Assembly: GCA_964469405.1 (NCBI GenBank)
Contig: CAYXYP010000002.1
Location: forward strand, 9,338-73,337
DNA: 64,000 bases
DNA from: an uncultured Candidatus Saccharibacteria bacterium
Lineage (GTDB): Bacteria > Patescibacteriota > Minisyncoccia > Phycocordibacterales > Phycocordibacteraceae
Direction: 5' to 3'
In this document: positions 31,988 to 64,000 of the stretch, in pieces
How positions within the stretch are numbered: the first letter of the stretch is position 1
Layout of the letters: every line of letters begins with the position of its first letter
The notes under the pieces: model-generated
What the model saw: only the letters and a program-made list of their open reading frames with translations
Database searches by the model: none
Told to the model about the DNA's origin: nothing
Made by a program: the position numbers and the translations under genes

Positions 31988-32592
31988 TTAATATCGAGGA
32001 TTTTCCTCTGCGACACCCTTAATATGATTTGCGAGACGTGCAAATGCAAAGAGCAACGACGAAAGACGATTTATGTATGCCATAGTTTCTTTTGTAGGAG
32101 AACATGCTTGCGCTTCTACCGCAGCGATAAGCCTCCTCTCGGTGCGGCGCGCGATGGTCCGCGCGACGTCGAGGAGCGCGGAGAGTTCAGTTCCCCCAGC
32201 AATGGAAAACCCTTTAATCGGGGGATCTCATTTTCTATATTGTTTACCAATTCCTCGACCTCTCGCACAGCAGACTTCCCCACTTTCTTATCTGCGCCAG
32301 CGACCTCCGCTTGAACGATAAAAAGTGTTTCTTGTACGGCACGTAGTCCGCCCTGAATACGCGACTCTCCGACGCTGCGCATTTTCACAAACCCAAGAAA
32401 TGCATTCAGCTCATCAAGCGCACCAAGTGCTTCCGGCACGAGTGATGATTTAGAGATCCGCTGCTGATTGCAGCCGAACGTCTTCGTTGTGCCATCGTCT
32501 CCTTTACCAGTAAAAAGCATATGCGGTGATCGTGCGCTTAGTATACCTTTCCAAGAATGTAAAAACAGAACGGGACGTGTCTTATCAGACAC
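31988..32592 (-). pseudogene. ATP:cob(I)alamin adenosyltransferase, PduO type, interrupted by a 1-nt frameshift near 32205
   Basis: Frame 1 (32592-32116) reads MLFTGKGDDGTTKTFGCNQQRISKSSLVPEALGALDELNAF...IPRLKGF. The C-terminal part continues in another frame to the stop at 31988 as FSIAGGTELSALLDVARTIARRTERRLIAAV...YINRLSSLLFAFARLANH. The shift is at the homopolymer-rich stretch AAAGGGTTTT. Confidence 0.6.
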
Positions 32593-32613
32593 GTCCCGTT
32601 TACGGCTATTGCT

Positions 32614-33507
32614 CTACGCTTGTTCAAGAACAGTTTTGCGAGCTTTTTCTATTTTATCATCAGGAGTTCGCTTAAGGTCTGTGGCCAATCCAAGCTTTGA
32701 CAGTCCAAGAATTATCCACTTGGACGGGTCGAAATTGTACCAAAGTAGACCATTTCGAAAATCTCTCGGGAAGGCATGGTGGTAATTGTGATACCCTTCG
32801 CCGAAAGTAACGAGGGATACAATCCAGCTATCCTGCGACGAATTCGCTCGGGTATATGGTTGACTGCTTCCCCAATGTCTCATGTGGGCAAGGCTATTGA
32901 TGAAGAACGTTGCATGCCACACGAGAATGGATGCGGAAACTCGAGAAATGAAACCTCCAAGAGGATCACCCCAGAGAGACGCAATAAGGACCGGCATGAT
33001 TCCCCAAAAAAAGATGATCAGCAGGTAGTAATTCTTGTGCTGAAAATTCACGAGCTGTGCGGTCCATGAATCCTCAGTGAGATGATCTGCTGCGCTGAAA
33101 TCTCCCTTTTTCCTGTCGGGATCCTTGAAAAGAATCCAACCGATATGTGAGTGCCAAAATCCTCGTGCCGCATTGTAAGGATCCTCGTCTTTGTCGGTTT
33201 TCTGATGGTGAATAACATGGCCAGAAACCCATACCTTGATGGTATTTTCAATAGCGGTTGTTCCGCAGATCGCGAGAATCGTCTGCACTACTTTCCCGCA
33301 TTTGAAAGAACGGTGGGTGAAAAAACGATGGTATCCGACCGTAATTCCAAGTCCACTTATGAAGAACCAGACTACGCCTGAAGCGATAGTCTGCCACTTC
33401 CAGTGACCGAGAGCTAGGGTATAGAAGCCGTAAAACGCGATAACGTGAACTACGCCCATGAAGATGGCGTTCTGCAAATACAGTTTTCCCTTCTTTGGTG
33501 CCATCAT
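32614..33507 (-). CDS. Membrane fatty-acid desaturase (Delta9 acyl-CoA/acyl-lipid desaturase family)
   Basis: Three His boxes HRFFTHRSF, HVIHHQKTD and HNYHHAFP, plus four TM segments. Confidence 0.85.
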   Translation of the reverse strand: MMAPKKGKLYLQNAIFMGVVHVIAFYGFYTLALGHWKWQTIASGVVWFFISGLGITVGYHRFFTHRSFKCGKVVQTILAICGTTAIENTIKVWVSGHVIHHQKTDKDEDPYNAARGFWHSHIGWILFKDPDRKKGDFSAADHLTEDSWTAQLVNFQHKNYYLLIIFFWGIMPVLIASLWGDPLGGFISRVSASILVWHATFFINSLAHMRHWGSSQPYTRANSSQDSWIVSLVTFGEGYHNYHHAFPRDFRNGLLWYNFDPSKWIILGLSKLGLATDLKRTPDDKIEKARKTVLEQA

Positions 33508-33602
33508 TCATTCACCTCCTTCCCCTAATAACAGATTGTTCAATGTGCTCTATCCTCCCCCAAGATAACAGATTGTCAGAAATTCGAAACGAGTTCCCTA
33601 AT

Positions 33603-33695
33603 GGTGCGCCGCTTTGGACAGAATTAGAACTTTATACAACACTCGCGATTCCGAACTCCTCAGGACATTAGCTATTATTCGGGATTTGGAAAGGA
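33603..33695. repeat. Repeat R copy 1: conserved block covering the last 7 codons plus 72 nt of 3' UTR of small paralog 1
   Basis: About 97% identical to 34873-34965 and about 85% to 36001-36095. Confidence 0.8.
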
Positions 33696-33923
33696 GGCAT
33701 CATGGTCGTCGCAAGAATCTGCCAAAGGCGGCGTAGGACGGCCGCTATGTTCGCCGGGTAGCGGACTATAGATAATCAGGTAGAGATTGATGAGGCGGCT
33801 TGCCATTTCCCGAGCCTCTTCCTCCTCAATGATCTTGCCGCACTCTTTTGCGTATATGACTCTAAATTCTTCGATTGATTCTTTTGGTGGATACATCTCT
33901 GGAGCATACGCAGGCACTCCCAA
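33675..33923 (-). CDS. Small conserved protein, paralog 1 of 3 (82 aa)
   Basis: IEEFRVIYAKECGKIIEEEEAREMASRLINLYLIIYSPLPGEH...SFPNPE; paralogs at 34945-35166 and 36072-36293. Confidence 0.6.
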   Translation of the reverse strand: MGVPAYAPEMYPPKESIEEFRVIYAKECGKIIEEEEAREMASRLINLYLIIYSPLPGEHSGRPTPPLADSCDDHDASFPNPE

Positions 33924-33934
33924 AAGGGCAGGAA

Positions 33935-34699
33935 TTACTTCTCAGAGTCTCTGTCTATTCGCTGTGTGCGGCTTCGTGTCAGGGTTTCCTTTCTCATCTC
34001 AAATAGGAGCTCCTTCATAACTTCAGGTTTAACCCGTATGTATGGAACTCCGTTGATAACTTCTTCTTCAATGTACGCCGGTAAGGACTGACGCCGATAC
34101 ACCGCAGGATCGTTCATATCCACACGAATAGTTTCTATTGGTTGATGAAAGAGTCTATTAACTACACAACCTGTAATTTCAGTATTGGTCGAGCTACCTT
34201 CCAATCGTAAGACCCACACACGCCTAAATGGGCCTGGGGAAAGGAGACTCTCTTTCAACTGCTCGACCCACGTCGGGCTTTGCGCGTTATTCAAGTAGAT
34301 AAGGAGATCGTAGTTTGTAGTTGAATAATGGTTTTCAAGTTTCCCTTTAATGATCACTCTTGCCTCCTCAATGCTCGTGCACCGCGGCGGCACCTCAACC
34401 AGTTCTATTTGTGCAAAACCAATACCGGGTGGATTTCCATCAAATACCAGGAGGCTGAAGTCAGGAAATTGATCCTTAACGGGCAACAAGAACCAATCTA
34501 AACCCGTGACCTTCTTCATTGCGACCATAAAGTACATAAGAGCAAAGCTCTCCCTATCTTTCTTTACATTCTCATCGGTGCTCGAGAAAAACTTCTTGGA
34601 ACCAATGCGCTTGAGTGTCGTTTCCATCTTTCTCAGCACCGCAATCCAATCTGAAAGAAGCAAAGAGTTGCTAGAAATGAAGCTTGGTTCCTGGGACAT
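33935..34699 (-). CDS. Hypothetical protein (254 aa), variable partner gene upstream of small paralog 1
   Basis: Ends 12 nt before the paralog-1 start; no recognisable domain. Confidence 0.5.
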   Translation of the reverse strand: MSQEPSFISSNSLLLSDWIAVLRKMETTLKRIGSKKFFSSTDENVKKDRESFALMYFMVAMKKVTGLDWFLLPVKDQFPDFSLLVFDGNPPGIGFAQIELVEVPPRCTSIEEARVIIKGKLENHYSTTNYDLLIYLNNAQSPTWVEQLKESLLSPGPFRRVWVLRLEGSSTNTEITGCVVNRLFHQPIETIRVDMNDPAVYRRQSLPAYIEEEVINGVPYIRVKPEVMKELLFEMRKETLTRSRTQRIDRDSEK

Positions 34700-34750
34700 T
34701 CATACATTGAAGCGAATGTCTGTCGCTTTGACTAGGCGGGGAACGACACA

Positions 34751-34872
34751 GAAAGGTTCGAATCCTGGACAGTGTCAACTGAACGAAACAAAAAATACCG
34801 ACAGTCGCGTAAAAAAGCCCTGAATTACAGGGCTTTTTAACGGCGTGATATTTTGCCTGCGAGACAAGAACT
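34751..34872. repeat. Repeat U copy 1: about 124-nt unit with a tRNA T-arm-like GGTTCGAATCC motif (34755-34765) and a bidirectional hairpin terminator (34811-34838)
   Basis: AAAAAAGCCCTGAATTACAGGGCTTTTT; copies at 35877-36000 and 36341-36465. Confidence 0.8.
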
Positions 34873-34965
34873 GGTGCGCCACTTTGGACAGAATTAGAAC
34901 TTTATACAACACTCGCGATTCCGAACTCCTCAGGACATTAGCTATTATTCGGGACTTGGAGAGGA
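34873..34965. repeat. Repeat R copy 2
   Basis: See R copy 1. Confidence 0.8.
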
Positions 34966-35166
34966 AGCTTGGAGCTCTCCAAGATGATCTTCCGAAGGCG
35001 GCATAGGGTGCTTAGGGATCTCGCCGGGTAGCGGACAGTAGATGATGAAGTAGAGCTCTATCAGACGATCGGTCATCTCAATTGCATCCCTCTCCGATAA
35101 GTACTTCCCGAATTCTTCCTGGTACAACTTCCGGAATTCATCAATGCTGGTTTTGTGTGTATGCAT
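34945..35166 (-). CDS. Small conserved protein, paralog 2 of 3 (73 aa)
   Basis: SIDEFRKLYQEEFGKYLSERDAIEMTDRLIELYFIIYCPLPGE...SSPSPE. Confidence 0.6.
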   Translation of the reverse strand: MHTHKTSIDEFRKLYQEEFGKYLSERDAIEMTDRLIELYFIIYCPLPGEIPKHPMPPSEDHLGELQASSPSPE

Positions 35167-35263
35167 GAGTACGGTCTACCCATGTCTCAGAAATCTTCAA
35201 GGGTTGCCACAAACAAAAAGAGCCAGGTTGTGTAACCTGACTCTTTTGATATAACGTTTACAA

Positions 35264-35587
35264 CTACCGAGCACAGAACTTCCCAGCTGGTTGGTTTTCA
35301 TAAATGGAATAGACTCGTCGTTGGCCATAGATGACCTTTTCGCCTGGTTGGAGATCTTTGCAGACACGTGTGCGACGCAGGAGTTTTCCGTTGCCGTCAT
35401 AATCGTGCCTCACCCACCAAGAGCCACCTGAACACCTGATCTGTCCATCAGTTTTCAAGATGAGCATTCGGCGACCCCAAAGCGGATAGAAATCGTAGCT
35501 ATGGGGCTCATTCTCGTTTCCACTACCCATCTCCCATCCCACAAGATGATCGAGACGAGCAAACACTCTTTGGAGCAAGGTTGTCAT
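35264..35587 (-). CDS. Hypothetical protein (107 aa), variable partner gene upstream of small paralog 2
   Basis: Trp/Gly-rich; no recognisable domain. Confidence 0.4.
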   Translation of the reverse strand: MTTLLQRVFARLDHLVGWEMGSGNENEPHSYDFYPLWGRRMLILKTDGQIRCSGGSWWVRHDYDGNGKLLRRTRVCKDLQPGEKVIYGQRRVYSIYENQPAGKFCAR

Positions 35588-35876
35588 GAACCCTCCTATC
35601 TTTCAATTGGGACAGTTTGAACAATCGTTTTCACACTTTCATGACCTGGTCGATGGGTGAGGATTAGAATTGTGCCGCGTTCCTCTCCTTGGAAATATTC
35701 GACAGTCTCTCCTCGCTTCTGTACTCGAGCCACCCTACCTCCGCCCGCTTTCTTTTCCATGCCATTTCCTTTCTGTGATCCATCAAAGAGCTGTTATGAA
35801 TTGTCTTCGCTGCTGTGGGAAAGTAAAGCACCCATGGTCGAGACTGTCACGAGAGGTGTTTCGGCAGGGTGCGAGA

Positions 35877-36000
35877 AAAAGGTTCGAATCCTATACAGAG
35901 TCGACAGGACAGATTTAGAAAGGCCGGCAATGCAACAAAAAAGCCCTTAGTTACAGGGCTTTTTTGTGTAGTGATATTTTGCCTACGAGGCAACGTGCGG
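35877..36000. repeat. Repeat U copy 2 (T-arm-like motif at 35881-35891; hairpin at 35937-35965)
   Basis: See U copy 1. Confidence 0.8.
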
Positions 36001-36095
36001 GTGCACCGCTTTGGACAGAATCAGAACTTTGTATAACGCTCGCGATCCTGAACTGCTCCACACACTCGCCATTATTCGGGATTTGGAAAGGAAGC
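36001..36095. repeat. Repeat R copy 3 (the most diverged copy)
   Basis: See R copy 1. Confidence 0.7.
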
Positions 36096-36293
36096 ATCAT
36101 ACTCGTCGCAAGAATCTGCCAAAGGCGGCGTAGTGACGTCGTTATGTTCACCGGGCAACGGGCGATACAAAATCTGGTAGAGACCGATCAAGCGTGCTAC
36201 CATCTCGATCGCATCTTCTTCAGATAGGTACTTCCCACACTCCTCCTGGTACAGCTTTCGAAATTCATCAATGCTATTTGTGTGTATGGGCAT
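36072..36293 (-). CDS. Small conserved protein, paralog 3 of 3 (73 aa)
   Basis: SIDEFRKLYQEECGKYLSEEDAIEMVARLIGLYQILYRPLPGEH...SFPNPE. Confidence 0.6.
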   Translation of the reverse strand: MPIHTNSIDEFRKLYQEECGKYLSEEDAIEMVARLIGLYQILYRPLPGEHNDVTTPPLADSCDEYDASFPNPE

Positions 36294-36340
36294 ACCTACT
36301 CTCTACCCGTATATCAAAACTCTTCAAGTTTCTGGCTTCA

Positions 36341-36465
36341 GAAAGGTTCGAGTCCTACACAGAGTCAGCAGAACAGATTTAAAAAAGCTCGTGAAGCAGC
36401 AAAAAAGCCCTGAATTACAGGGCTTTTTTACGGTGTGAAATTTTGCCTGCGAGGCAATGTGCGAG
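36341..36465. repeat. Repeat U copy 3, directly abutting the tRNA-Leu(GAG) 3' end (T-arm-like motif at 36345-36355; hairpin at 36401-36429)
   Basis: See U copy 1. Confidence 0.8.
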
Positions 36466-36549
36466 TGCCCAGGAGAGGACTCGAACCTCCAAGCCCTTTC
36501 GGGCGCTACCACCTCAAGGTAGTACGTCTACCAATTTCGCCACCTGGGC
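36466..36549 (-). tRNA. tRNA-Leu (anticodon GAG), type II with long variable arm; no encoded CCA
   Basis: Manual fold: acceptor GCCCAGG/CCTGGGC, anticodon loop TTGAGGT, variable arm CGCCCGAAAGGGCTT, T-arm GGAGG-TTCGAGT-CCTCT. Confidence 0.9.
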
Positions 36550-58684: not shown

Positions 58685-60844
58685 ATGACTTCCAAGCGGC
58701 GCTTTCCATGGCGGCACTCTCTTCTTGCGTCTATTCTGGCACTTTTGGGTCTCGGGTTCTTTATAGGAGGCGGGGTTCTTCTTGCTGTTGTTGCAACCCC
58801 AGCGCCCGATATTGATTCCTTTTCCTCACGGCAGATTGACCAGTCAACAAAAATATATGATCGTACTGGGCAAATACTTCTCTACGACTACAACCGGGAC
58901 GCCAAACGCAATGTCGTCCCCCTCACCGCAATATCGCCCAACACAATAAACGCAACAATAGCGATTGAAGATTCAAGTTTTTATGCACATGGGGGCATCC
59001 GCCTTACTTCAATAATTCGAGCCACATTCGTCAACGCTGTCGGTGGTGCGATCTCGCAGGGTGGCTCAACCATCACGCAACAAGTTATTAAAAACGAGCT
59101 CCTCACAAACAGAAAAAGTGTTACTCGAAAAATTAAAGAGTGGGTACTTGCGATAAAGCTGGAACAAGTCTACTCAAAAGATCAGATTCTCGAGACATAT
59201 CTTAATACCATTCCCTATGGCGGTACCCTCTATGGTATTGAAGCCGCTTCTGAGGCTTACTTTGGGAAACCCGCAAAGGACCTCTCGCTAGCACAAGCGG
59301 CATACCTTGCGGCTATGATTCAGGCGCCTTCCTATTATTCGCCGTATGGCGCCCATCAAACTGAACTTACAGCCCGTAAAAATCTTGTCCTTGATCGAAT
59401 GTTTGAACTTGGTTTTATAAATAGCTCTGCGCACACATCTGCACAAGCTGAAAAAATTTCTTTCTCCCCTGCGGGCCAGAATGCGGTCATAGCGCCTCAT
59501 TTTGTTTTTTATATCCTCAACCAACTCGAAGAGACTTATGGTTCCAGAGCTCTTACGGCGGGACTAAAAGTCACCACGACACTGGACGCTGAACTTGAGG
59601 TAGAAGCTGAGTCCATCGTTAATCAGTATGCACTCGAGAATGTGAAGAAATTTAAAGCAACAAACGCATCTCTTGTTGCTATAGACCCCCCGACAGGACA
59701 AATTCTTGCTATGGTTGGTTCCCGAAATTTTTTTGATAAAGAAATTGATGGACAATATAACGCCACACTTGCTTCTCGCCAGCCTGGCTCAACAATGAAG
59801 CCTTTTATTTACTCACTTGCCCTTAAGGCTGGCTACACGCGCGACACTATTGTCTTTGATGTTCCGACTCAATTCTCAACGGTATGCAAACCATCGGAAA
59901 CAACAAATAACACCGCACCTTGTTACGCTCCTGTTAACTTTGACGGGGCTTTCCGTGGCCCTATGACCTTTGAAACAGCCCTTGCCCAATCAATCAACAT
60001 CCCAGCTATTAAAACCCTTTATCTTGTTGGGATACAGAACGCGGTAAATCTCGCCAAATCATTTGGCCTTACTACTCTTGGCGACCCAAATCAATATGGC
60101 CTTACGCTTGTGCTTGGTGGAGGTGAAGTACGCCTTCTTGATCTTACTGGCGCATATGCCGCTTTTGCGAATGAGGGAACATTAAATACCCCGACAGGAA
60201 TACTCGAGGTTGATGATGCTGCAGGAAACGTACTCCAACAATTTTCTGCACAATCCTCAATAGTACTCCCAACACTTATTGCACGAGATGTTTCTGCAAT
60301 GCTCTCTGACGCCCGTGCCCGCCTCCCGGAGTATCCACTCAACTCCCCTCTCTCTTTCTCGGGATATGATGTGGCAGTGAAGACAGGAACAACAAATGAT
60401 ACTAAAGATGCATGGATCGTCGGCTATACCCCCTCTATCGCGATTGGTGTATGGACAGGAAACAACGATAACTCCCCTATGGTTAAGTCTGTTGCTGGTT
60501 TTATTGCGGCACCAATGTGGCATGAAGTAATGGCATATGCTCTCTCAAAATACCCAAAAACTTATTTTGGTGAACCGAGCGCTATACTTTCTTCTGTTCC
60601 CCCTATGTTGCAGGGGAACTGGAGTGTCCGTGACATGCAGGGAAATATATTTCCTCATAGTTTATTGTATTGGACTGATAAACATAACCCTCAAGGCCCA
60701 CCTCCTCTTAATCCTTCAGAAGATCCTCAATTCGAATACTGGGAATATGGGGTTTCCGCATGGTATACCGCTCACCCTGATCTTTTTTTAGGTGGAGTGA
60801 TGACTCCTGTACCTCTATCAAATAACGCAACTACAACTTTTTAA
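58685..60844 (+). CDS. Class A penicillin-binding protein (glycosyltransferase plus transpeptidase)
   Basis: GT51 motifs EDSSFYAHGG and GGSTITQQ; transpeptidase STMKPF (SxxK). Confidence 0.9.
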   Translation: MTSKRRFPWRHSLLASILALLGLGFFIGGGVLLAVVATPAPDIDSFSSRQIDQSTKIYDRTGQILLYDYNRDAKRNVVPLTAISPNTINATIAIEDSSFYAHGGIRLTSIIRATFVNAVGGAISQGGSTITQQVIKNELLTNRKSVTRKIKEWVLAIKLEQVYSKDQILETYLNTIPYGGTLYGIEAASEAYFGKPAKDLSLAQAAYLAAMIQAPSYYSPYGAHQTELTARKNLVLDRMFELGFINSSAHTSAQAEKISFSPAGQNAVIAPHFVFYILNQLEETYGSRALTAGLKVTTTLDAELEVEAESIVNQYALENVKKFKATNASLVAIDPPTGQILAMVGSRNFFDKEIDGQYNATLASRQPGSTMKPFIYSLALKAGYTRDTIVFDVPTQFSTVCKPSETTNNTAPCYAPVNFDGAFRGPMTFETALAQSINIPAIKTLYLVGIQNAVNLAKSFGLTTLGDPNQYGLTLVLGGGEVRLLDLTGAYAAFANEGTLNTPTGILEVDDAAGNVLQQFSAQSSIVLPTLIARDVSAMLSDARARLPEYPLNSPLSFSGYDVAVKTGTTNDTKDAWIVGYTPSIAIGVWTGNNDNSPMVKSVAGFIAAPMWHEVMAYALSKYPKTYFGEPSAILSSVPPMLQGNWSVRDMQGNIFPHSLLYWTDKHNPQGPPPLNPSEDPQFEYWEYGVSAWYTAHPDLFLGGVMTPVPLSNNATTTF

Positions 60845-60871
60845 TAAGAAGGATGTGAATTTAAATTACTA

Positions 60872-61972
60872 TTATTGATTCATTGGAGAAACGAGATACA
60901 GGAGTGAGGTATCATTCATTCCTTTTATAATAAGTGGGCGCCCAACTCCAGCCGCAAGAAGTGAGACACTTTCTGATGTGGTGAGAGATAACACTGCTGA
61001 AAGATATCGATGATTAAAAGACAATTCAAGAGCACTTCCTGATATGTTGGCTGGGATTGTCTCTAATGATTCTCCAATATCTGCATTTCGCGCAAAGAAA
61101 GAAAATACATTCTTTTTAGGATCAAAACTAATACGTACTTTCTGAAATAAATCAGAAAAAATAGTTGTTCTCTTGAGTGCATTTTCGAAATCTTTTCGCA
61201 ATATAATTGCTTCAACAATTGATTCTTTTGGTATAATTTGCCTATAATCTGGGTACACAGCATTTGTTAGGCGTGATACCAACATACCCTTATCACTTAC
61301 AAAGGCACATTGATGCTCATCAAATGACATAATAATATCATTATCTGGTAACGCTTGTGCTATATCAAGAGCATTTTTTGCTGGAATAAGAAACTTTCCT
61401 TGAAGTCCTTTATTAATTAAAGGTACTTTTTTCTCAGCAAGTCTGAATGAATCAGTAGCAACAGCGGTTAATATCCCCCCTTCAATAGATATATAAATAC
61501 TGGATAATTCAGGACGGACCGTAGATGTTGATGCGCATGATGCAATAGAGGTAAAAAGTGAACGTAAAAGTATTCCAGGAATTACTATTCTATTTTTTGG
61601 ATTTTCTGGAAATGGAATCGACGGGAAATCATCATAAGGAATGGTTTTTATAGAGCTTTTACTTGTACCACTTGTAATTGAAATAACCTCCCCAATATGC
61701 TCGATTATTATCTTCCCTTCTTGAGTGAATAAGCTTGCTATTTGCTGAAGTATTATCGCAGGAATTGCGACAACGCCTTTTGTAGTGCATTCACCTTCAA
61801 GTTTTAAATCTATACCTGTCTCAAGATTTGTTGCACGCATTTTTATACCCTCATCTCCCGCAATAATAAGTATTGAAGACAGTGCAGGAAGTGTTGCGCT
61901 TTTCTTTTGAGCAAACCGAGACACGATATGCACAGCCTCAGAGAATTTATTTTTTTCTATTAAAATATTCAT
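60872..61972 (-). CDS. dnaN: DNA polymerase III beta sliding clamp
   Basis: 366 aa; three-domain clamp profile; immediately downstream of dnaA. Confidence 0.9.
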   Translation of the reverse strand: MNILIEKNKFSEAVHIVSRFAQKKSATLPALSSILIIAGDEGIKMRATNLETGIDLKLEGECTTKGVVAIPAIILQQIASLFTQEGKIIIEHIGEVISITSGTSKSSIKTIPYDDFPSIPFPENPKNRIVIPGILLRSLFTSIASCASTSTVRPELSSIYISIEGGILTAVATDSFRLAEKKVPLINKGLQGKFLIPAKNALDIAQALPDNDIIMSFDEHQCAFVSDKGMLVSRLTNAVYPDYRQIIPKESIVEAIILRKDFENALKRTTIFSDLFQKVRISFDPKKNVFSFFARNADIGESLETIPANISGSALELSFNHRYLSAVLSLTTSESVSLLAAGVGRPLIIKGMNDTSLLYLVSPMNQ

Positions 61973-62072
61973 ACAATTCTTATTAAGGGTGTTGATAAGT
62001 GGATAACATAAAAATATAAGGAGATTGTTGGATATTTACACACGACTGTTTTATATAATATGTTGATAAGGT
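61973..62072. promoter_or_regulatory. Candidate oriC segment: AT-rich dnaA-dnaN spacer with DnaA-box-like 9-mers
   Basis: TGTTGATAA (61991-61999), AGTGGATAA (62000-62008) and TGTTGATAA (62061-62069), compared with the TGTGGATAA consensus; AT-rich run TTTTATATAATAT. Confidence 0.55.
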
Positions 62073-63428
62073 TCATACAAGAAGGGTTCTAATATTTTGA
62101 ATTTCTTGTGCGAGTTCACTGTCCACAACTATTTCACGCTTTATCTTCTCACAGGAGTGGATAACGGTCGTATGATCACGACCACCAAGTTTTGTACCTA
62201 TGGTTGGGTACGATATTCTAAAATCCTCACGAAGGATATACATTATAATTTGCCGCGGACGAACAACTTCCCTACGTCTAGTTTTCTCATAGATACTCTC
62301 TTCATCGATACCATAAAATTCAGCTACTTTATCAACTACATTTTTTACCGATATATTTTTCTGTGGACGAGTAAAAGAACGTAGAGACTGCCGCACTTCC
62401 GCGATGTCGGGGGCAAAACCCTTTACTTGAGCATGGCAGATTATACTATTTACCATACCTTCTAACTCACGTATTGAGCCATTCATAGATGTTGCTACAT
62501 AATCAACAACCTCATCAGATAGTAGTACACCATGTGAGGCAGCTTTTTTTCTTACAATAGCCATACGGGATTCTGGGTCGGGTTCGCCAATATCTACAGC
62601 CATACCACTCGCTAAACGGCCCTTAAGACGTTCAGCGATGTCTGGAATAGCCGCAGGAGGTCGATCAGAAGAAAAAATAATCTGTTTATTTGTGTCGTAA
62701 AGAGCATTAAAAAGATGGAAAAGCTCCTCCTGAGTCTTTTCTTTTTTAGAGAGAAATTGAACATCATCCATAATAAGAAGGTCATATTGACGATATTTAT
62801 CTTTGAAACGATTTGCAGTACCAGCTTGCACGGAGTCGGTATAGTCGACTGCGAATTTTTCTGACGTTAAATAGAAAACTTTCCGTCCTTGGTACTGTTT
62901 TTTATAATGGTTACCAATAGCTTGAATAAGGTGCGTTTTGCCGCGGCCGGTGTCACCGTAAATAAAGAGAGGGTTATAGGTAATACCAGGGCGTTCGAGT
63001 GCCGCCTGGGCTGCAACATAGGCTAAATTGTTAAAAGAACCGATAACAAACGTATCAAACGTATAGCGGGGATTCAAATTGTCACTTTTGTTGATGTAAA
63101 AATCATCAAGAGGAAGTTCGAGTGCACTACTACGTACGGTTTTGGTCTCCTTGGATAATCTACGATTCTCATCCTTCACAATAAGATACTCAATATTGCG
63201 AAATTCATATGAAACGTCGCGAACAATCTTCAATAGTAAGGTATTAAATTTCTTAAGGTACCAATCCTTAAAGAATTGACTCGGGACACCAATATATACA
63301 ACGCCGTCCTCCCCTATTTTTACGATAAAACTATTACGGAACCATGTGTTGAAATTTGCGGGCGATATAGAAAGTTCAATATGGGTGAGTATGTACTCCC
63401 AAAGTTCTCGAGGATCTCCTTTATTCAT
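62073..63428 (-). CDS. dnaA: Chromosomal replication initiator DnaA
   Basis: AAA+ GDTGRGKTHL; C-terminal DNA-binding domain; divergent from rpmH. Confidence 0.95.
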   Translation of the reverse strand: MNKGDPRELWEYILTHIELSISPANFNTWFRNSFIVKIGEDGVVYIGVPSQFFKDWYLKKFNTLLLKIVRDVSYEFRNIEYLIVKDENRRLSKETKTVRSSALELPLDDFYINKSDNLNPRYTFDTFVIGSFNNLAYVAAQAALERPGITYNPLFIYGDTGRGKTHLIQAIGNHYKKQYQGRKVFYLTSEKFAVDYTDSVQAGTANRFKDKYRQYDLLIMDDVQFLSKKEKTQEELFHLFNALYDTNKQIIFSSDRPPAAIPDIAERLKGRLASGMAVDIGEPDPESRMAIVRKKAASHGVLLSDEVVDYVATSMNGSIRELEGMVNSIICHAQVKGFAPDIAEVRQSLRSFTRPQKNISVKNVVDKVAEFYGIDEESIYEKTRRREVVRPRQIIMYILREDFRISYPTIGTKLGGRDHTTVIHSCEKIKREIVVDSELAQEIQNIRTLLV

Positions 63429-63527
63429 AGTGTTCTGAAAGTATACGCTTTTTATTCATTCAAGATATGTTGGCGTTTCGGGGAGAACCTGTTAGTATCG
63501 TGTGCATAACCTAATTTTCCGTTCACT

Positions 63528-63665
63528 ATGTCCAAACGAACCTATCAACCGAAAAAACGTAAGCGCGCTACGACGCACGGGTTTCTTGCGCGGACAAAAA
63601 CGAGTTCTGGGCGTAAGATAGTGAAAAAACGCCGTCGTATCGGTCGCGCACGACTCGCAGTCTAA
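63528..63665 (+). CDS. rpmH: 50S ribosomal protein L34
   Basis: My translation gives [45 protein letters not shown] (45 aa; below the ORF-track length cutoff). Confidence 0.85.
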
Positions 63666-63671
63666 TTATTT

Positions 63672-63983
63672 GTGTTCTCACGTCGAGAACGTCTTTCTCG
63701 TGCGGCATTCCCTACGGCCCTCTCTACTGGTCGGCGGTTCTCATCGACAAACTTCAGTGTCGTTTTACCAAAAGAATCACGAGGATATGCGGTTGTAGTG
63801 TCAAAAAAAGTCGCTCGCCTCTCGGTCACGAGGCATTTAATTAAGCGGCGAGTGCTTGAGGCCCTTCGAACGCTCCCTCTTCCCTCCTCCATTATTGTTT
63901 TCCCAAAAACAGCGGCTAGCCGGATGTCCTACCAGGACGTCAAAGTGGAGCTCGCAACCCTTCTTTCTAAAATTAGCCGATAG
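63672..63983 (+). CDS. rnpA: RNase P protein component
   Basis: 103-aa basic protein immediately after rpmH, following the conserved rpmH-rnpA order. Confidence 0.8.
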   Translation: MFSRRERLSRAAFPTALSTGRRFSSTNFSVVLPKESRGYAVVVSKKVARLSVTRHLIKRRVLEALRTLPLPSSIIVFPKTAASRMSYQDVKVELATLLSKISR

Positions 63984-64000
63984 AGTAGAATAAATGCATG

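Follow-up and report, generated by a model that had tools for sequence, protein, structure and literature searches.

A predicted SCD-type fatty acid desaturase, probably long resident in a Kaiserbacteria-like lineage of Patescibacteria

Bacteria of the Candidate Phyla Radiation (CPR, or Patescibacteria) are usually described as anaerobic fermenters dependent on host lipids; they have no lipid synthesis and probably take up lipids from other community members (PMC7242380). What, then, would a fatty acid desaturase that needs oxygen do in such a genome? The question is raised by a gene on the minus strand of a 64,000-nucleotide (64-kb) stretch of contig CAYXYP010000002.1 (assembly GCA_964469405.1), referred to here as the window. 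An earlier note on this DNA had described the gene as a membrane di-iron desaturase with three histidine boxes in a CPR-like genome, had suggested horizontal acquisition for lipid remodelling or O2 scavenging, and had pointed to two direct repeats upstream as a possible operator. From comparisons of sequence and of a modelled fold, we consider it likely that the gene encodes a functional O2- and electron-dependent acyl desaturase of the stearoyl-CoA desaturase (SCD) type, most likely with Delta9 specificity, that has long been resident in a Kaiserbacteria-like lineage.

The desaturase and its lineage

The gene in question is the following:

32614..33507, minus strand: desaturase coding sequence, 297 aa, ATG start, four predicted transmembrane helices and a predicted di-iron site

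The open reading frame (ORF) is intact and matches the PF00487 FA_desaturase profile over residues 45-265 with 62.7 bits against a cutoff of 29.7. Its histidine boxes read H60-R-F-F-T-H65, H97-V-I-H100-H101 and H240-N-Y-H243-H244, and N204 and H208 in an NSxAH motif supply the extra ligands. Aligned with its 29 closest database relatives (30 sequences in all, 56-99% identity), the protein shows no degeneracy of the boxes: H60, H65, H97, H100, H101, N204, H208, H240, H243 and H244 are invariant throughout. A phmmer search of the PDB matched human and mouse SCD1 only (E values of 8.5e-43 and 5.3e-41), with query residues 9-282 aligned and HRxxxH, HxxHH, NSxAH and HNYHH all in register with the SCD1 metal-ligand motifs. 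An AlphaFold2 model built from the 30-sequence alignment (mean predicted local distance difference test score, pLDDT, of 81; predicted template modelling score, pTM, of 0.81) places four long helices like the transmembrane helices of SCD1. Searched against the PDB with Foldseek, the model retrieved the SCD1 entries 4ymk, 6wf2 and 4zyo, with template modelling (TM) scores of 0.82-0.83, and nothing else significant. On the strength of the full-length match to SCD1, the invariant ligands and the SCD1-like fold of the model, we assign the protein as an intact SCD-type 'first desaturase', a membrane di-iron enzyme, in agreement with the earlier description. Enzymes of this class consume O2 and two electrons for each double bond made (PMC5037126). 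The named homologues are all annotated as stearoyl-CoA or acyl-CoA Delta9 desaturases, and Delta9 would be the most likely regiospecificity.

The protein belongs to a well-bounded group. A database search returned about 30 clusters at 694-308 bits (56-99% identity), comprising one 99%-identical sequence at 694 bits and other members at 515-308 bits, while everything else scored 283 bits or less. One of these clusters carries the name 'fatty acid desaturase [Patescibacteria group bacterium]'. In a neighbor-joining tree of 150 sequences and 278 columns with 200 bootstraps, the Patescibacteria-only clade was monophyletic in 188 of the 200 replicates and sister to a Nitrospirota-dominated group of short-form desaturases in 142. 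Outside the clade, the nearest relatives are mostly from Nitrospirota. A scan of GTDB genome contigs with the pattern GEGYHNYH gave, among the matches listed, only non-CPR relatives of 51% identity or less; no member of the clade was among them. Desaturases in IMG/VR were at most 46% identical, none falling inside the Patescibacteria clade, and a viral vehicle for the gene was rejected on these grounds. Nor are close homologues universal in the lineage, given the total of about 30 protein clusters and the absence of the gene from one syntenic relative, described next.

Genomic context was recovered for eleven clade members or relatives, whose contigs carry L numbers below. The order UppS-RluA-L19-(tRNA-Leu, 0-3 variable genes)-desaturase-PduO-like-hypothetical-SIMPL-SecE-NusG-L11 was found, whole or in part, in eight related genomes (window/L081, L087, L088, L090, L091/L092, L094/L095, L097 and L115). 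Only the desaturase-PduO pair is kept in L085, and in L089 and L093 the desaturase lies in other, still CPR-like, contexts. The backbone, PduO-like gene included, is also found in L096, which has no desaturase.

Divergence and composition agree with long residence. Pairwise identities in the trio of window, L097 and L087 (window to L087 given last) are 73, 76 and 65% for the desaturase, 76, 75 and 71% for UppS, and 86, 90 and 85% for RluA. These values fit vertical descent, the window lineage having changed somewhat faster. The 65% identity to L087 had prompted the idea that the window copy was replaced from another CPR lineage; this was rejected, as L097 lies between them (73% and 76%) and UppS shows a parallel pattern. 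The desaturase has a GC content of 0.466 and a third-position GC content (GC3) of 0.500, compared with window means of 0.480 +/- 0.036 and 0.468 +/- 0.074, and its codon-use cosine of 0.86 is within the range of the other window genes. In view of the Patescibacteria-only clade, the conserved slot, the UppS-like divergence and the native composition, a recent horizontal acquisition is not supported. We conclude from these comparisons that any inter-phylum transfer would be ancient and that the desaturase appears to be a lineage resident, occasionally lost and rare across Patescibacteria.

The identity of the host is indicated by several genes. The ribosomal protein L19 of the window falls in a 90%-identity cluster that includes Candidatus Kaiserbacteria bacterium and Patescibacteria group bacterium proteins, and L115, which has the same desaturase locus as the window, comes from a metagenome-assembled genome (MAG) whose L19 is named Candidatus Kaiserbacteria. 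Exact sequences of the window's L19, SHMT and PolA occur on 14-17 public contigs. The window also encodes dnaA/dnaN, many aminoacyl-tRNA synthetases, ribosomal proteins, RecA, Ruv, murein enzymes and a type IV pilus. Judged by the L19 cluster and by this housekeeping and pilus gene content, which bear out the CPR-like label, the genome is that of Kaiserbacteria-like Patescibacteria. Over 11.4 kb the window matches contig L081 at 100% identity, and L081 derives from well H51 of the Hainich groundwater (sample Hain_H51_02um). This well is classed as oxic, with 2.73 +/- 0.31 mg/L O2 (Chaudhari et al., PMC8672522).

The upstream repeats, promoter and leader

The region around the gene contains the following elements:

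33528..33539, minus strand: proximal 12-mer, with a species-specific GTTAT part
33565..33576, minus strand: distal 12-mer (minus strand ACAATCTGTTAT), holding a small palindrome, ACA-ATC-TGT
33562..33572, minus strand: predicted extended -10 promoter, TCTG-T-TATCTT (TCTGTTATCTT), overlapping the distal 12-mer
33533..33548, minus strand: conserved leader block GCACATTGAACAATCT, consensus G-y-h-C-w-TTGAwyAATCT
33515..33519, minus strand: Shine-Dalgarno sequence GGAGG, 7 nt upstream of the ATG at 33507
32569..32600, minus strand: intrinsic terminator with a perfect 14-bp stem, 4-nt loop and T-rich tail, starting 14 nt past the stop codon

The two exact 12-nt direct repeats reported earlier are present. 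The sequence ATAACAGATTGT occurs at 33528-33539 and 33565-33576, 37 nt apart and 21 and 58 nt upstream of the ATG. These are its only two matches in 64 kb even with one mismatch allowed, where 0.26 would be expected, and two matches anywhere were obtained in 3 of 100 shuffles. The upstream regions were compared across ten independent orthologous loci. At the distal site, GACAATCTGTTATC is kept in L087 and (G/C)CAATCTGCTATCC in L097, L115 and L094, while at the proximal position only ACAATCT is common with L087 and L097, and AATCT with L115. The two sites share ACAATCT or CAATCT in L087 and L097, AATCT in L085 and L094, and nothing in L090 and L091. As only these short cores are common to both sites in the relatives, the perfect 12-nt identity is species-specific.

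Beneath the distal repeat lies a more widely conserved element. The pattern TCTGnTAnnnT is invariant in the 10 loci, 45-75 nt upstream of the ATG; the bases that never vary are the TG and, within the hexamer, A in the second and T in the sixth position. A scan upstream of the desaturase found no canonical -35/-10 promoter, and no usable -35 accompanies the -10 block. The features are those of an extended -10 promoter of the sigma-70 type, from which transcription would start near 33555. The leader block lies 10-23 nt downstream of the -10 block, and its last 7 nt are the first 7 nt of the proximal 12-mer; in L089 and L093 it is palindromic, TTGATCAA.

Could the repeats nevertheless be a regulatory site? 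In such an account the 12-mers would form a two-site repressor operator (for example on ACA-ATC-TGT) that occludes the -10 and blocks early elongation, so that expression would follow lipid status, temperature or O2. Chance would very rarely place an exact 12-nt direct repeat within 50 nt, and each copy has the palindrome ACA-ATC-TGT, which in the proximal one lengthens to AACA-ATC-TGTT. A CAATCT or AATCT core stands at both positions in the window, L087, L097, L115, L085 and L094, the upstream 70 nt show stronger conservation than the coding sequence when the window is set against L087, and there is no stable conserved leader RNA fold to account for that conservation instead. However, a repressor-operator pair calls for a conserved site with a regulator nearby, and what was found is a 5-7-nt core at both sites, of which only 7 nt are common in the nearest relatives, and no regulator gene, DesT/FabR/TetR-like or other, adjacent in any of the 11 loci. 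The spacing between the sites in four loci, 37, 38, 40 and 47 nt, is a poor fit to phased cooperative binding, the bases invariant in all loci are -10 determinants and not the repeat, and the 12-mer motif is found nowhere else in the window. We regard an operator as unlikely, given also that the distal copy sits on the conserved extended -10. The exact 12-nt identity is best read as species-specific and of recent origin, and the conserved parts as a promoter and a leader element.

A regulatory RNA was also considered. The desaturase leader had no match in Rfam, and eight orthologous leader folds gave z-scores of -2.3 to +1.4 with no common structure; an RNA thermometer or riboswitch was rejected for want of both. 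An anti-Shine-Dalgarno pairing occurs in the L090 and L091 leaders and is absent from that of the window.

A purine-rich Shine-Dalgarno sequence is present in all orthologous loci. In the window, three ATGs lie close together behind the single one at the desaturase start, in the arrangement ATGAATGATGG. The second in-frame ATG, at 33504, is the start used in another assembly and gives 296 aa. Another ORF, of 87 aa (33248-33511, minus strand), begins out of frame at an ATG 4 nt before that of the desaturase; it overlaps the gene and is probably spurious. With a terminator directly after its stop codon, and with its own promoter and Shine-Dalgarno sequence, the desaturase reads as monocistronic.

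Alternative chemistry and the tRNA-Leu slot

The strongest rival to an SCD-type desaturase, itself improbable in our estimate, is a PF00487 member with another chemistry or target, such as a hydroxylase, a desaturase acting at another position, an enzyme of sphingolipids, plasmalogens or carotenoids, or a protein serving mainly to consume O2 for protection. With the same histidine boxes, the superfamily does take in alkane hydroxylases and ketolases as well as desaturases of differing regiospecificity (PMC5037126). Two features of the clade could be taken in this sense, the insertion after NSxAH, where HxKHWGSSQPY is found, and the change from Trp to Phe at the substrate-positioning site of SCD1. 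Against it, the full-length similarity is specific to SCD1, SCD1 supplied the only structural matches, and the annotations of the named homologues all point the same way. O2 scavenging stoichiometric with a lipid substrate would also be inefficient, and the scavenging role suggested earlier found no specific support.

We considered it less probable still that the desaturase is recent cargo of a mobile island at the tRNA-Leu. The neighboring features that bear on this are the following:

31991..32520, minus strand: homologue of PduO-type cob(I)alamin adenosyltransferase, the conserved downstream neighbor and part of the chromosomal backbone
36465..36549, minus strand: tRNA-Leu(GAG), separated in the window from the desaturase promoter by a 2.9-kb insert
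33603..36468, minus strand: lineage-specific insert of three tandem repeated modules, between tRNA-Leu and the desaturase promoter and outside the desaturase unit

In the window the gene lies between tRNA-His and tRNA-Leu, beside the 2.9-kb module array, which is bounded by tRNA-Leu-like fragments. The cargo of the slot differs among relatives, and desaturases of the family are found on viral contigs (PMC7678222). In L087 and L097, however, the tRNA-Leu is immediately upstream of the desaturase promoter, and in L115 a tRNA-Leu-like 3' end is found there, with no array in any of the three. The downstream neighbors are the same in eight genomes, and the promoter is conserved among them. The composition of the gene is native, and its closest non-CPR and viral relatives, among the matches listed above, are as distant as already described. 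This evidence favors a resident gene over recently acquired cargo.

The array itself has a regular structure. Each module contains a degenerate 3' two-thirds of tRNA-Leu, ending ...GCGCACC(A), a conserved 127-nt block with a small hairpin and a bidirectional terminator (AAAAAAGCCCTG..CAGGGCTTTTTT), and a paralogous 73-82-aa ORF without a Pfam match (36072-36293, 34945-35166 and 33675-33923). Two modules carry additional cargo ORFs, of 54 and 107 aa at 35264-35760 and of 254 aa at 33935-34699. The array breaks short-read assemblies, with L082-L084 ending there. It looks like the product of serial integration or duplication at the tRNA-Leu 3' end, and no integrase is present. The notion that the D2 module repeat blocks are diverged copies of the desaturase promoter and leader, or that AATCTGT is a recombination core, was rejected when the local alignment was matched by 54-161 of 500 shuffles. 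Slot content in other relatives (L090:5538-6835, L091:3845-5155, L094:1253-5190, L097:2071-2781 and L096:7732-9644) includes a LAGLIDADG homing-endonuclease-like ORF, CarboxypepD_reg-domain proteins, DUF2339 together with a TSP_3-repeat protein, and a split AI-2E transporter. By these comparisons the slot is a variable hot spot beside a conserved backbone.

The PduO-like gene on the other side is split into two frames near 32194-32224, its halves being 72-76% identical to the L087 protein. The same-population contig L081 has a 10-N scaffold gap exactly at this point, and the frameshift may therefore be an assembly artefact. An obligate partnership of the desaturase with the PduO-like gene was rejected, given that the latter stays in L096, is separated from the desaturase by the terminator and is apparently frameshifted in the window. 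As a backbone gene, the PduO-like gene is curious in organisms without a cobalamin pathway.

That the desaturase entered through faulty binning or assembly, or is a pseudogene in decay, is barely credible and effectively refuted by synteny: the adjoining gene is apparently frameshifted and the repeat-rich region breaks assemblies, but in nine independent assemblies the desaturase shares a single contig, without a break, with CPR housekeeping genes, and its ORF is intact with every catalytic residue invariant.

One further feature of the window concerns its far end. The dnaN and dnaA genes (60872-63428) have GC contents of 0.36 and 0.40 and GC3 values of 0.22 and 0.33, much lower than in all other genes examined (mean GC 0.48), and GC over the last 4 kb (60001-64000) is 0.39-0.41. 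The drop may come from the origin region, or the DNA there may be foreign or mis-joined.

Proposed role and relation to known desaturases

Returning to an SCD-type desaturase as the preferred assignment, the enzyme would introduce a cis double bond into saturated acyl chains that the cell, unable to make them, would obtain from hosts or the environment. Its substrate could be acyl-CoA, as for SCD1, DesB and DesA3, or glycerolipid-bound chains, as for DesA and DesC. Lipid-bound chains are perhaps the more likely, since the organism seems to import whole lipids. Desaturation would allow membrane fluidity to be tuned in cold groundwater without the FabA/FabB route. Electrons would come from a separately encoded soluble donor of the ferredoxin or flavodoxin type located outside the window.

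The earlier note had proposed a check for fab/pls genes and an electron donor in the rest of the genome; this was carried out in part, for the 64-kb window, and turned up nothing. None of about 55 window ORFs scanned was a respiratory gene or a gene of fatty acid or phospholipid synthesis, and a motif search of the window found no ferredoxin, rubredoxin, flavodoxin or cytochrome b5 signature. In L087, between S20 and UppS (L087:3686-5418), a cupredoxin gene is followed by one for a NOX/FRE-like membrane protein of 433 aa, in which Ferric_reduct and NAD_binding_1 domains are recognised; in that interval the window has pilus genes instead. The pair is a further hint of O2- or metal-linked redox proteins in the lineage and is not an obvious desaturase donor.

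Several observations weigh against a functional, long-resident SCD-type enzyme. The 64 kb, a fraction of the genome, yielded no gene for a donor (ferredoxin, flavodoxin, cytochrome b5 or reductase), for an acyltransferase or for an acyl-CoA/ACP synthetase. Phe201 occupies the position of human SCD1 Trp262, which positions the substrate, and the NCBIfam equivalog for the DesA family, NF049918, gives the desaturase 59.3 bits against a cutoff of 400. The promoter and transcription start are predictions. The absence of the gene from L096 indicates that it is dispensable, and the window copy is the most divergent of the trio (65% to L087 compared with 85% for RluA), which could reflect relaxed or shifted constraint.

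The literature provides some context for an O2-dependent enzyme in these bacteria. CPR bacteria grow under oxic conditions, some O2-using enzymes are known in them, and many have been argued to be adapted to oxic groundwater (PMC12577380). A 2025 survey of 587 Hainich CPR MAGs listed aspartate oxidase, kynurenine monooxygenase, dioxygenases, cytochrome oxidases and others; a desaturase is not mentioned among the O2-using enzymes of that survey (PMC12577380), nor in a 2021 Hainich genome study (PMC8672522). Our search of the literature for CPR, Patescibacteria or Parcubacteria together with 'desaturase' found, among the papers retrieved, no such gene described in these organisms.

Within this context, a conserved, intact desaturase from a lineage found in an oxic well adds a concrete O2-dependent membrane function and suggests that scavenged lipids get tailored and are not used as received. 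A bolder proposal, which we advance tentatively and rate somewhat below an even chance, is that an ultra-small, lipid-auxotrophic Patescibacteria lineage depends on O2 to remodel host-derived acyl chains via a stand-alone SCD-type desaturase, long retained at a fixed site. If true, no membrane enzyme that modifies lipids and consumes O2 directly would have been recognised in Patescibacteria before it, Kaiserbacteria-like organisms would be microaerophiles or aerobes by membrane physiology, and there would be an experimental handle on how CPR bacteria obtain and tailor their membranes. The target is tractable, as the gene is single and small and its assay clear. At least one clade member is already labelled a fatty acid desaturase at NCBI, and the enzyme is a conventional member of a well-known family. 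The advance is therefore ecological and physiological, not mechanistic, and what is new is a member of this family in an unexpected host group.

Comparison with characterized systems places the enzyme more closely. The nearest in structure is SCD1, to which it is 31-32% identical over the full length, with a predicted four-helix mushroom fold (TM score 0.82) and the same nine His and one Asn ligands. It differs from SCD1 in being about 60 residues shorter, with no N-terminal extension, in having Phe201 for Trp262 of the human enzyme, and in the clade-specific insertion of 3 residues after NSxAH. HxKHWGSSQPY at the insertion is invariant in the clade and modelled with low confidence by AlphaFold2. 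The SCD1 partners, cytochrome b5 and b5 reductase, were not found in the 64-kb window; bacteria normally use other donors. The Nitrospirota-dominated short-form desaturases (about 280-300 aa, some from Gemmataceae and Syntrophobacterales) have a similarly minimal length and are 41-51% identical. There is nevertheless a clear similarity gap, and the HWGS(S/R/T)QPY signature of the window clade is present in none of them among the matches listed. To our knowledge, the Nitrospirota-type short forms are uncharacterised.

Bacillus subtilis Des, under the DesK/DesR cold sensor, is an O2-dependent membrane desaturase that serves homeoviscous adaptation and is fed by ferredoxin or flavodoxin, a role and a donor like those proposed for the window enzyme. 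Unlike the latter, Des is a Delta5 desaturase of the six-helix, methyl-end type (PMC5037126). No two-component system adjoins the CPR desaturase.

Among bacterial Delta9 desaturases, Pseudomonas aeruginosa DesA acts on acyl chains already in phospholipids, while P. aeruginosa DesB and mycobacterial DesA3 act on acyl-CoA. All three are of the 'first desaturase' type within the common superfamily, and they supply the two mechanistic options for the window enzyme. DesB and DesA3 each work with a dedicated oxidoreductase encoded next to them (DesC and Rv3230c, respectively), and desCB is under the DesT repressor; no such adjacent oxidoreductase or regulator is present at the CPR loci. Cyanobacterial DesC and plant ADS are acyl-lipid Delta9 enzymes (PMC5037126). 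Both are small first desaturases that stand alone and take chains bound in glycerolipids as substrate, with ferredoxin as the donor of the cyanobacterial ones. They would be an attractive functional analogue for the desaturase of a lipid scavenger.

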